NCBI GenBank assembly: GCA_964473485.1
Contig: CAYYPH010000001.1
Span: 65,722 to 129,721 of the forward strand
Source: an uncultured Prolixibacteraceae bacterium
GTDB taxonomy: Bacteria; Bacteroidota; Bacteroidia; Bacteroidales; FEN-979
Reading direction: 5' to 3'
DNA length: 64,000 nucleotides
The translations under genes were made by a program, and so were the position numbers. The notes under the pieces are model-generated. The model made no database searches and had not been told where the DNA came from. It saw nothing but the letters and a program-made list of their open reading frames with translations. Positions 41,613 through 42,615 of the stretch are shown here, piece by piece. The first letter of the stretch is position 1. The number at the start of each line of letters is the position of its first letter.

Positions 41613-42314
41613 CTACAGTGTTACTAACAGGTAAAACCCAAATGCCACCAAGGCAACGCCTCCGGCGTATTTTACGATGATTACGGCCTGCGAAAGTCGT
41701 TCCGGTATTTTTCCCAATCCCATCCCGATCCCCAGGACCATGGCGGTGAGAGGAAGTCCGAATCCAAGGGCGAAGCACAACAGTATGAGAAATCCCCACA
41801 GTGCTGACCCATTGATGAACGAAGCAGCCAGGACGACCGGGAAGAACGGGTTGCAGCATGTATTGCAGGCCGCAGAAAGTCCCCCGACCGCAAAGCCGAA
41901 AAGAATGGCTGTAAACATGTTGCGATCGGAAACCTGGCCCGGTAAATTTACGCCGGGTAATTTGAACGGCACCAGGTCCATCGTATACAGACCAAAAAAA
42001 ATAGCGATTAGCCCGGCTGCGATTTTCCAGTAATTGCCCAGGGATGCCGAAATCCAGTTGCCGGCATAGCCGAAAAGTGCTCCAACAAGGGCCATGGCGA
42101 GGATCGTTCCGAGAAGAAAGGATAACCCTTTCCACAGCACAATCCGGGTTTTTCCGCTCGCCTGGCTGGCCCCCGAATAGCCTGCAACCACCCCGATGAT
42201 GGCGAAATTACAGGCACAGGTAAAGACACTGAGCGCCCCCAACAGGAATACGGCAGCCAGAACATAGAAAGAGGCATGTTCGTTGCTCAATGCCTGGTGT
42301 ATCCACTGGTTCAT
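41613..42314 (-). CDS. DsbD/CcdA-superfamily-like Cys-containing membrane protein
   Basis: The ATG at 42314 gives MNQWIHQALSN... It is a 6-TM protein with intramembrane Cys motifs (FTCACNF, AACNTCCNPF). Confidence 0.5.
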   Translation of the reverse strand: MNQWIHQALSNEHASFYVLAAVFLLGALSVFTCACNFAIIGVVAGYSGASQASGKTRIVLWKGLSFLLGTILAMALVGALFGYAGNWISASLGNYWKIAAGLIAIFFGLYTMDLVPFKLPGVNLPGQVSDRNMFTAILFGFAVGGLSAACNTCCNPFFPVVLAASFINGSALWGFLILLCFALGFGLPLTAMVLGIGMGLGKIPERLSQAVIIVKYAGGVALVAFGFYLLVTL

Positions 42315-42321
42315 AACCGGG

Positions 42322-42615
42322 CTATTTGGGGCAGCAGGATGAACTTTTTGCCGTATCGCAACACGATCCCGATCGCGAAGAATCCGACCAGGAGGGAGCG
42401 TTCGGATCATTCACCACCTGGTTGGGTGCGGCCGGTACCTGCGGGTCGGTAAAAAACAGCTTTGCTGCAATGATCACTGCAGCTGCAAGCATAACGACCG
42501 TGAAAATGACCTTCGGCCACCAGCTCTTCCGTTTGGGTGGGCAGCAATCGCCTTCACATCCGCAATCGCGTGCACCAGTACCTGGTGTTTCCGGCTGTTT
42601 GATTCGATCATCCAT
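42322..42615 (-). CDS. small Cys-rich single-TM protein (unknown family)
   Basis: 97 aa. N-terminal CGCEGDCC, a central TM (VIFTVVMLAAAVIIAAKLFF), and a C-terminal SCC..SSCC. Confidence 0.5.
   Translation of the reverse strand: MDDRIKQPETPGTGARDCGCEGDCCPPKRKSWWPKVIFTVVMLAAAVIIAAKLFFTDPQVPAAPNQVVNDPNAPSWSDSSRSGSCCDTAKSSSCCPK

Follow-up and report, generated by a model that had tools for sequence, protein, structure and literature searches.

A conserved pair of cysteine-rich membrane proteins encoded beside hgcA and ars genes in Bacteroidota is a candidate metal(loid) relay

We analysed two adjacent genes immediately upstream of hgcA in the window, which is the whole 64,000-nucleotide stretch of DNA under study. 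They belong to one tight string on the minus strand, in the order arsR, arsC::arsM, small, dsbD-like, hgcA, hgcB and acr3. The string is headed by an arsR-family regulator (44299..43931), followed by a fusion of arsC (LMWP) to arsM (43867..42635), which adjoins on its downstream side, across a 19-nt gap, the gene of a 97-aa bitopic, Cys-rich protein (42615..42322). This small gene is an ORF without a Pfam or NCBIfam family. It is separated by 7 nt from the gene of a 233-aa six-TM protein (42314..41613), which Pfam assigns to the DsbD_TM/DsbD_2 family and which is a four-cysteine variant of it. hgcA (41606..40578; NF040863, 427 bits) adjoins the DsbD-like gene downstream with a 6-nt gap. hgcB (40594..40280; NF040864, 120 bits), with the C-terminal end ...CDCGENKSCC, and the arsenite efflux permease gene acr3 (40256..39210; TIGR00832, 447 bits) complete the string. 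Intergenic gaps of the string measure 6-19 nt in the window, which suggests co-transcription. A scan for sigma-70 promoters and terminators, whose coverage lies outside Bacteroidota promoters, returned sites no commoner than in shuffled sequence. From its homologues, the DsbD-like gene almost certainly starts at ATG 42314 (MNQWIHQ...) and ends at 41613 to give 233 aa, since all ~240 of them begin there and are ~233 aa long. A 265-aa ORF from 42410 was dismissed as a first-ATG artefact; it overlaps the small gene.

The small protein reads MDDRIKQPETPGTGARDCGCEGDCCPPKRKSWWPK-VIFTVVMLAAAVIIAAKLFF-TDPQ...SGSCCDTAKSSSCCPK, with Cys18/20/24/25 before and Cys85/86/94/95 after one hydrophobic helix. 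Its N-terminal cluster C18-G-C20-E-G-D-C24-C25, followed by PPKRK, is encoded at 42541..42564 and predicted to be cytoplasmic; hydropathy places the single TM helix at V36-F55 (42451..42510), and the C-terminal tail C85-C86 ... C94-C95-P-K (42331..42363) is predicted to be periplasmic (all on the minus strand). Both proteins described in the original prediction are real, with every feature where it had been placed, including CGCEGDCC before the TM helix and SCC...SSCC after it. The ORF is conserved across 49 loci with 24-68% identity and the same architecture, and alignment of the 49 orthologues revealed a family plan of an N-terminal CxC..CC, a basic patch (PKKK), one TM helix and a Cys tail. 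C18 and C25 are invariant in the N-cluster and C20 and C24 are at least 90% conserved, and in the tail C94 is invariant and C95 at least 90% conserved (alignment A4). The tail side of the orthologues carries 3-7 Cys, often as repeated C-D-T-T-K units.

The best 19-residue stretch of the small protein has a mean Kyte-Doolittle value of 2.75 over the 49 orthologues, and a second hydrophobic segment was found in none of them (0/49). Flanking K+R residues average 3.8 on the N side vs 1.67 on the C side, and positive-inside statistics predict an N-in orientation in 46/49 orthologues. Furthermore, three genomes (loci L007, L023 and L025) encode natural ArsC::small fusions in which ArsC precedes the N-cluster. 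Because ArsC is fused in front of it, we assign the N-cluster to the cytoplasmic side. The positive-inside statistics and the three fusions together bear out the earlier claim of Cys clusters on both membrane faces. When the small protein and its alignment were compared with Pfam, NCBIfam and PDB, only chance-level matches were obtained (MerT 0.085, FeoB_associated 0.08, DUF6264 0.046). Long-form partners contain a degenerate Trx-like domain, a sequence feature that hints at descent from a redox partner; BLASTP gave no alignment between the periplasmic domain of a long-form partner and the window's secreted CxxC protein.

The six-TM protein matched DsbD_TM with 34.0 bits (cut-off 27.1) and DsbD_2 with 30.4 bits (cut-off 24.9) in Pfam. 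Two cysteine motifs read from the DNA lie on the minus strand: C33-A-C35 in TM1 (42218..42210), at the predicted break of helix 1, and C150-N-T-C153-C154 in TM4 (41867..41853), followed by N-P. In the family alignment (A2), C33 is invariant and C35 at least 90% conserved, and C153, C154 and P156 are invariant, with C150 variable. The TM1 CxC is present in ~232/240 family proteins, and CxC-N together with CC-NP is retained in essentially all of the ~240. Alignment with CcdA-type representatives (hmmalign) showed that C35 and C153 correspond to the canonical CcdA redox cysteines and that C33 and C154 are additions. TM1 reads S-V-F-T-C-A-C-N and lacks the proline of the canonical S-P-C, whereas TM4 keeps C-C-N-P156 where the canonical sequence is P-C-x-x-P. 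Chance does not account for these features of the pair: conserved copies of the small ORF recur at 49 loci, and hardly any family member lacks one of the four membrane cysteines.

An AF2 model of the DsbD-like protein, computed from a 70-sequence alignment that included the L047 branch, reached moderate confidence (pLDDT 70.8, pTM 0.67); a first run on the shallow alignment A1 (23 sequences, >=60% identity) gave a pLDDT of 44.6 and was discarded. In the model, TM1 and TM4 are broken at the cysteines, with helices at 16-29/34-49 and 133-154/157-167. A Foldseek search of the PDB with this model returned CcdA 5VKV as the best and sole convincing match (prob 1.00, TM 0.49/0.51), the next lying at E>0.07. 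The K+R distribution predicts an N-out/C-out topology, as in CcdA. The six-TM protein is thus modelled with the CcdA/DsbD fold and, together with the Pfam matches, the Foldseek result upholds the likeness to DsbD/CcdA proposed earlier. Searches of PDB sequences with the family profile gave nothing at E<=1, so that CcdA was found by fold comparison alone. The homologue search found 634 + 441 proteins, and the family is small, with 44 clusters at E<=1e-30 among 1.84 billion representatives. Long N-terminal extensions of the distant representatives P0247 and P0293 were considered as fused partners and rejected; the partner in L058 is a separate uncalled ORF.

We then counted gene contexts in 45 species-level Bacteroidota genomes, 44 of which had loci readable for the small ORF. 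The small ORF lies directly upstream of the DsbD-like gene in 43/44 readable loci, is 71-132 aa long, and ends 1-8 nt before, or overlaps, the DsbD-like start. The same plan and position recur in the distant branches L047, L051, L053, L055, L056 and L058. The two genes form a conserved module and probably encode one functional unit. ars and/or hgc genes are present at 44/45 loci, a metal(loid) methyltransferase system (ArsM or HgcAB) at 41/45 and acr3 at 28/45; in L043 and L051, the pair is followed by arsM in place of hgcA. The pair rarely stands alone (L047, L056). Homologues spread widely through genomes without ars, mer or hgc genes, with varying cysteines, would have spoken against the original prediction; this was not what was found, 44/45 loci being in ars/hgc contexts and the cysteines kept. 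Diverged modules in ~52% GC lineages (L083, L087) and in L059 were again found beside hgcAB or arsM, an independent recurrence of the arrangement. merA was absent among the ORFs scanned against family libraries, which comprised part of the window's ORFs and those of related loci. A tblastn search against plasmids retrieved only ~30%-identical CcdA genes in copper-type contexts (multicopper oxidase), not in mer or ars contexts.

Co-occurrence with hgcAB, which the original prediction had anticipated, holds strongly within Bacteroidota: hgcA is at the locus in 36/45 genomes and directly adjacent in 33. The pair is not specific to HgcA, however. It is kept in ars operons without hgcAB (8/45 loci, plus L001-L005), and in a reciprocal scan of a broader sample any DsbD-like gene was present at only 8/50 hgcA loci and missing from 42/50. 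The hgcAB loci without the pair include those of model methylators and L060, which encodes a 63%-identical HgcA. The reciprocal scan rules out the pair as obligatory for hgcAB. Because ars operons without hgcAB carry it and few hgcA loci of the broader sample have any DsbD-like gene, the pair is accessory and not a core hgc component. In L070, the small protein is encoded directly upstream of hgcA without any DsbD-like gene. As the pair is not HgcA-specific, we still infer no more than tentatively that it might deliver substrate to, or protect, HgcA.

We propose that the pair acts as a cysteine-lined metal(loid)-thiolate relay across the inner membrane, serving both arsenic and mercury handling, a tentative reading to which we give a little short of an even chance. 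In the CcdA/DsbD fold, the cysteine site at the TM1 and TM4 breaks is exposed alternately to either side of the membrane. Motifs of the CxC and vicinal CC type commonly serve as ligands of As(III)/Hg(II), as in ArsR (CVC), ArsD, MerT, MerA and HgcB. Anatomy, fold, topology, conservation, the obligate pairing and the linkage of the genes are shown above and underlie the proposal; a cargo of metal(loid) rather than electrons is what we infer. The membrane site has four cysteines (CxC in TM1, CC in TM4) in place of the canonical pair. The 97-aa partner is anchored N-in/C-out, with its CxCxxxCC next to the membrane on the cytoplasmic side and a flexible tail of several cysteines in the periplasm. 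Thiophilic species could then be handed on by ligand exchange between three sites: the partner's N-cluster in the cytoplasm, the four cysteines within the membrane and the tail in the periplasm. The cargo might be As(III), Hg(II) and/or their methylated products MAs(III) and MeHg, which the cytoplasmic cluster would exchange with ArsC, ArsM and the CC tail of HgcB. The logic would be that of MerP -> MerT -> NmerA on an unrelated fold. Hand-off or export from the cytoplasm is somewhat favoured by the ArsC fusions and the linkage to acr3, and uptake would fit equally well with the likeness to MerT and the place of the genes ahead of hgcAB. A bolder and rather doubtful version is that a CcdA-fold electron transporter has turned into an alternating-access carrier of Hg(II)/As(III)-thiolates. 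Bacteroidota methylators would then have, in this carrier and its two-faced Cys-rich partner, a dedicated route that has been missing so far, one that brings Hg(II) and As(III) to HgcAB/ArsM or removes MeHg/MAs(III). Counting against the relay, the protein still has the canonical redox pair and might simply carry out disulfide exchange; also, most hgcAB loci function without the pair, and Acr3 in the same operon already provides As(III) efflux.

The main alternative, which we consider somewhat unlikely but a serious contender, is a genuine CcdA-type conduit in which only electrons cross the membrane. A cytoplasmic reductant, possibly acting through the partner's N-cluster, would reduce the membrane cysteines, and these would keep the partner's periplasmic tail, or a periplasmic thioredoxin or rhodanese, as thiols; the reduced tail could sequester As(III)/Hg(II) outside the cytoplasm or aid periplasmic arsenic chemistry. 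Membership of DsbD_TM/DsbD_2, the CcdA fold and the conserved canonical Cys pair fit such a conduit. So do the secreted rhodanese::thioredoxin lipoprotein encoded directly upstream of the pair in L053/L054, the TM-anchored thioredoxins of several related islands, which likewise count against the relay, and the Trx-like remnant of the long-form partners. CcdA plus Trx in ars operons was earlier proposed as a redox system (PMC2963123). Yet two extra invariant cysteines are superfluous to the known CcdA mechanism, and the ArsC-fused cytoplasmic cluster has no obvious role in electron transfer. A Trx-fold gene is not consistently adjacent, and none lies within the window's arsR-to-acr3 string, whereas the Cys-rich bitopic partner is the constant neighbour; Trx genes elsewhere in some islands might nevertheless supply a partner in trans. 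Moreover, a complete canonical Trx/CcdA/CxxC module is already present 7 kb away in the same island.

The ArsC::small fusions, the acr3 genes at 28/45 loci and the solitary small protein before hgcA in L070 would also suit a membrane-tethered cytoplasmic metallochaperone or scaffold without transmembrane transfer. Its N-cluster, lying at the membrane surface, would pick up Hg(II), or As(III) from ArsC, and feed Acr3, ArsM or HgcB/HgcA, much as ArsD feeds ArsA, with the DsbD-like protein mainly docking or stabilising it. We regard this as improbable: it does not explain why an alternating-access fold should keep four membrane cysteines so strictly or why the Cys tail in the periplasm is conserved, and the pairing with the DsbD-like gene is near-universal. 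Public annotations of the relatives, either 'cytochrome c biogenesis protein CcdA' or 'TauE/SafE', would instead make the six-TM protein a housekeeping CcdA for cytochrome c maturation that lies beside an unrelated small ORF by coincidence. This is scarcely credible, being contradicted by the context statistics (44/45 loci within ars/hgc clusters), the small size of the family, the non-canonical cysteines and the small ORF conserved alongside; no cytochrome c maturation genes were seen adjoining the pair.

To our knowledge, no accessory protein is known for Hg entry to HgcAB or for methylmercury exit. A translationally coupled cysteine relay just ahead of hgcA would be a concrete, mutable candidate for such substrate handling. 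If the relay reading is true, a disulfide-exchange fold has been re-used for metal(loid) ligand exchange; if the carrier reading is true, Bacteroidota hgcAB are an integral part of an arsenic/soft-metal detoxification operon and not a stand-alone pathway. The link between arsenic and mercury is sharpened by one module that occurs in operons with ArsM, HgcAB, or both. Methylation rates are poorly predicted by hgcAB abundance (10.1101/2022.10.17.512643), and as a new marker the pair could help account for differences in methylation capacity among hgcAB carriers. In lakes and thawing permafrost, the hgcA carriers with the highest transcriptional activity include Bacteroidota, with Prolixibacteraceae and vadinHA17 among them (PMC7438021, PMC10504345). 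No description of the small/DsbD-like pair was found in the searchable literature. For an actinobacterial 'CcdA/TrxA mercury transporter' as precedent, only annotation-level table entries were found (PMC12195606), and it is not discussed in Boyd & Barkay 2012.

Among known systems, the DsbD-like protein is closest to CcdA/DsbD (PF02683, PF13386; 5VKV, Thermus thermophilus CcdA), with which it shares the family, six TM helices, the N-out/C-out topology and TM1 and TM4 broken at a cysteine. It differs in that each canonical cysteine is doubled (CxC, CC), a doubling that is invariant in the family, and in that the TM1 S-P-C proline is missing. Where CcdA/DsbD has a thioredoxin-fold partner, this protein has a Cys-rich bitopic peptide, and its context is ars/hgc rather than cytochrome maturation. 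[quoted passage not shown] The complete canonical module at 48256-50823 comprises a cytoplasmic Thioredoxin_3, a two-Cys DsbD_2 protein (SPCP / FCPY) and a secreted CxxC protein. This DsbD_2 protein is only ~24% identical to the four-Cys protein over half the length, and the four-Cys pair is a separate paralogue with a different partner.

The FeoB-associated Cys-rich membrane protein (PF12669) is also tiny, with a single TM helix, a Cys-rich tail and a gene beside a metal transporter; it has the other orientation and one Cys cluster only, and was matched by 1/24 partners at the chance level (E 0.08). ArsD, ArsP and Acr3 are likewise encoded in ars operons and bind and pass As(III)/MAs(III) through vicinal or CxC cysteines, and the ArsC::small fusion suggests product capture. 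Neither protein of the pair matched the ArsD, ArsP or Acr3 profiles in Pfam and NCBIfam, DsbD being the sole family; unlike the pair, ArsD is soluble and feeds the ArsA ATPase, and ArsP and Acr3 have other folds. The original prediction had seen no similarity to MerT/MerP, and profile searches likewise detected no homology: neither window protein matched MerT (PF02411) or an HMA-fold MerP, and the MerT match of 1/24 partners (E 0.085) is at chance level. The pair is unrelated to MerT/MerP in sequence and fold, and its gene string includes no HMA-fold MerP, merA or merR. The proposed logic is nevertheless the same as in MerT/MerP (also MerC, MerF), again with cysteines on both membrane faces, where a periplasmic thiol ligand hands Hg(II) to a Cys pair in the first TM helix and on to cytoplasmic cysteines that pass it to the enzyme, and the analogous motifs in the pair are the CxC in TM1 and the predicted cytoplasmic CxCxxxCC of the partner.

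The genes from 44299 to 39210 on the minus strand form a single closely packed string: arsR (44299..43931), an arsC(LMWP)::arsM fusion (43867..42635), a 97-aa ORF for a small Cys-rich protein (42615..42322), a 233-aa DsbD-family ORF (42314..41613), hgcA (41606..40578; NF040863, 427 bits), hgcB (40594..40280) and acr3 (40256..39210). The gaps separating arsC::arsM, the small ORF, the dsbD-like gene and hgcA are 19, 7 and 6 nt, respectively. From gene spacing alone, we infer that the string is co-transcribed; a promoter and terminator scan of it gave no signal over shuffled background. 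The original prediction had described a Cys-rich pair of proteins here, and reading the ORFs and motifs on the window DNA confirmed this. The small protein reads MDDRIKQPETPGTGARD-CGCEGDCC-PPKRKSWWPK-[VIFTVVMLAAAVIIAAKLFF]-TDPQ...SGS-CC-DTAKSSS-CC-PK, and the DsbD-like protein carries S-V-F-T-C33-A-C35-N in TM1 (DNA checked at 42218..42210) and C150-N-T-C153-C154-N-P in TM4 (41867..41853). A 265-aa ORF from 42410 was rejected as a first-ATG artefact, the homologues all beginning at the MNxWI Met and measuring ~233 aa. Putative AlbA_2/Schlafen-type regulator ORFs lie on both sides of the ~12-kb same-strand ars/hgc island, at 37899-39152 (plus strand, called from sequence reading) and 52071-52718 (minus strand, Pfam scan).

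The DsbD-like protein matched Pfam DsbD_TM (34.0 bits, cut-off 27.1) and DsbD_2 (30.4 bits, cut-off 24.9), and a sequence profile of its family found no match among PDB chains. An AlphaFold model built from a 70-sequence alignment (pLDDT 70.8, pTM 0.67) showed TM1 and TM4 both interrupted at the cysteines. The only structure that matched it convincingly was that of CcdA, 5VKV, solved by NMR (prob 1.00, TM 0.49/0.51, 24% identity), all remaining matches having E>0.07. Mean K+R counts were 0.06 at the N-terminus, 2.0, 3.0 and 1.7 in loops 1, 3 and 5, and 1.2 and 0.8 in loops 2 and 4, a distribution that gives a predicted N-out/C-out topology, like that of CcdA. The subfamily is narrow: among 1.84 billion cluster representatives, a profile search picked up no more than 44 clusters at E<=1e-30 and 173 at E<=1e-10. 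When representatives were aligned to the profile, the canonical CcdA-type cysteines (S-P-C in TM1, P-C-[AT]-T-P in TM4) coincided with C35 and C153, leaving C33 and C154 as extra. Extra cysteines also occur in intermediate relatives (S-C-C-N in TM1, C-x-x-C-C-N-P in TM4), and across ~240 homologues at close and middle distance CxC-N and CC-NP show essentially no variation, with C150 variable. One representative, the 271-aa 'DsbD-like' gene call P0334, has a C-terminal part resembling the HgcA N-terminus (EWTIGDHLGAIGVRLNIRR), which suggests a frameshifted dsbD-like/hgcA junction in a further lineage, which is high-GC.

Because a word-indexed search with the small protein gave only five relatives, the sequence lying 5' of the DsbD-like gene was read at each related locus (L numbers). 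This showed that a 71-132-aa ORF of the same plan ends 1-8 nt before, or overlaps, the DsbD-like start at 43/44 readable genome loci; at L027 the small-protein gene is a frameshifted remnant. A small ORF of this plan likewise lies immediately 5' of the DsbD-like gene in a more distant branch (query L047) at L051, L053, L055 and L056, and it is present, with its gene uncalled, on the high-GC contig L058. This adjacency marks the small protein as a genuine and obligate partner of the DsbD-like protein. It matched no family in Pfam, NCBIfam or PDB. In the alignment of 49 orthologues (subset A4), C18, C25, F38, K52 and C94 are invariant and C20, C24, P27, K29 and C95 are conserved at >=90%; each orthologue has one hydrophobic helix and no more, with 3-5 cysteines on its N side and 3-7 on its C side. 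K+R averaged 3.8 in the N flank versus 1.67 in the C flank (N>C in 46/49). ArsM is the fusion partner of ArsC in the window and at many other loci, whereas in three species-level genomes the ArsC ORF reads without a stop into the small protein, giving fusions of 231-245 aa (L007 7257-7994, L023 7283-7999, L025 6145-6840). Since ArsC is cytoplasmic and fused before the N-cluster, these fusions place the N-cluster in the cytoplasm and the tail in the periplasm, independently of K+R. They also tie the N-cluster in function to arsenate reductase.

A one-genome-per-species scan yielded 45 loci, all in Bacteroidota MAGs (Prolixibacteraceae, Bacteroidales, Lentimicrobiaceae, Marinifilum), and their context was counted by tblastn with the window's proteins. 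Ars and/or hgc genes were present at 44/45, ArsM or HgcAB at 41/45, at least one ars gene at 38/45 and hgcA at 36/45, directly 3' of the DsbD-like gene at 33/45. Six of the 45 had hgcAB without detectable ars genes, and eight had ars genes without hgcAB, in the order arsR, arsC(::arsM), small, dsbD-like, acr3. In the closest ars-only operons (L001, L006, L008) acr3 is 95-96% identical to that of the window; set against these operons, hgcAB seems either to have been inserted between the pair and acr3 or to have been deleted from there. Elsewhere arsM follows the pair (L043, L051), the pair stands on its own (L047, L056), or housekeeping genes surround the pair and hgcAB, and a secreted rhodanese::thioredoxin lipoprotein is encoded upstream of them (L053/54). 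Diverged modules in ~52% GC lineages (L083, L087) and at L059 again adjoin hgcAB or arsM; in their long-form partner, the N Cys cluster and TM helix are followed by a ~110-aa domain, whose thioredoxin-like signals stay below threshold, and by a Cys tail.

Several loci carry further insertions or paralogues. At L087 (2949-3935; ~52% GC) the diverged pair and hgcAB are separated by a CDF (cation efflux) transporter whose N-terminus is His-rich. A conserved 105-aa polytopic membrane protein of no known family separates the DsbD-like gene from hgcA in termite-gut lineages (L041 7662-7979, L068 2503-2820), with an additional 433-aa insertion there at L041. L051 has two ArsM paralogues in one cluster (6716-7720 and 9308-10351), one with an extra N-terminal Cys-rich region and the C-terminal end GCCCSSSGCC, the other with a fused N-terminal Thioredoxin_3 domain.

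A reverse search that started from hgcA yielded 80 loci from metagenomes, their HgcA being 45-63% identical to that of the window. Of the 50 loci with 800 nt or more of DNA upstream, only 8 had a DsbD-like gene. Four of the nine closest had the pair and one the small protein alone: at L070 (3622-3963) the partner sits directly between arsR and hgcA and the DsbD-like gene is absent from the locus, so the partner can persist without its membrane mate. L060, also among the nine (63% identity), has arsR, arsC, hgcAB and acr3 and no pair. Given this low frequency, the module is an accessory of some hgcAB/ars operons, not core hgc. The original prediction of a relay that serves HgcA, with metal as its candidate cargo, is partly supported: it holds for anatomy, topology and co-occurrence with hgcAB, and overstated the specificity for HgcA, as the ars-only operons and the reverse search both show.

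The central cysteines of the CcdA fold are exposed in turn to either membrane side (5VKV work), and CxC and vicinal CC are motifs used by ArsR, ArsD, MerT, MerA and HgcB. By analogy, a CcdA-type membrane site widened to four thiols, together with a partner that supplies thiol clusters at both vestibules, fits a ligand-exchange relay by which thiophilic As(III)/Hg(II) species would move through the pair, a reading we favour tentatively. Gene linkage (ArsC fusions, ArsM, HgcAB, Acr3) indicates an arsenic and mercury context for the cargo. It is very hard to credit that the protein is a housekeeping CcdA. The main rival, in which electrons alone traverse the membrane and the pair serves to keep a periplasmic thiol sponge or Trx/rhodanese in the reduced state, draws on the retained canonical Cys pair, the rhodanese::Trx neighbour at L053/54 and the Trx-like remnant within long-form partners; we consider it rather unlikely. 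A tethered cytoplasmic chaperone involving no transmembrane transfer seems improbable. For the ligand-exchange relay, the ArsC fusions and acr3 lean towards cytoplasmic hand-off or export, and the Mer analogy and the location before hgcAB would allow uptake.

Other genes of note share the minus strand. Directly upstream of arsR (44346-46707) are three four-Cys DGC-domain proteins, one fused to a glycine-cleavage H-protein domain (45190-46122), beside a 2x[4Fe-4S] ferredoxin (46043-46336) and a 124-aa protein without assigned family. The DGC pair recurs in L007, L009, L011, L014 and L030, and P. mercurii ND132 has a DGC protein within an ArsR-regulated operon (10.1101/2022.10.17.512643). An outer-membrane beta-barrel of the PF13557 Phenol_MetA_deg family (46713-48127), starting Q-C-C-T-S-G-N-P-F after its signal peptide, follows a PKD-domain lipoprotein that carries a Cys pair of its own. 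Both are found together again in related ars/hgc islands (L001, L002, L007, L009, L013, L014, L031) and could form, with the inner-membrane pair, an envelope-spanning thiol route. A 37-residue remnant at 48129-48239 is 62% identical to a TM-anchored thioredoxin (166 aa, GCISC) intact in L001, L002, L009 and L014, and is apparently a decayed thioredoxin gene.

The ars-hgcAB linkage is known, Prolixibacteraceae included, and hgcAB has been shown to be under the control of ArsR (PMC7438021, 10.1101/2022.10.17.512643, PMC10349881, PMC10504345). The searchable literature held no paper joining hgcA with DsbD, CcdA, cytochrome c biogenesis or a Cys-rich partner. Public annotations call relatives of the DsbD-like protein CcdA or TauE/SafE and leave the partner 'hypothetical' or uncalled. 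On comparative grounds, the four-cysteine CcdA-fold protein and its undescribed bitopic Cys-rich partner are a conserved ars/hgc accessory module.

A complete, conventional ars-type redox module, which serves as an internal control, lies 7 kb upstream of the pair on the same strand (48256-51550, minus). It comprises arsR (about 50921-51300), a Thioredoxin_3 protein with G-C-P-N-C (50823..50590), a secreted 134-aa CxxC protein with R-C-T-T-C (50593..50189), a two-Cys DsbD_2 with I-S-P-C-P and F-C-P-Y (50192..49488), a rhodanese-like protein (49070-49567) and an F420-type oxidoreductase (48256-49017), and the same set occurs in L002, L009, L030, L031, L042 and L051. By gene content it corresponds to the CcdA/thioredoxin/'redox-active disulfide protein 2' system, which had been reported from ars operons before (PMC2963123). 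The four-Cys DsbD-like protein, with ~24% identity to the window's two-Cys DsbD_2 across half its length, is by this comparison a separate paralogue. It has doubled cysteines, and its partner is a Cys-rich peptide where the CcdA/thioredoxin module has thioredoxin folds.
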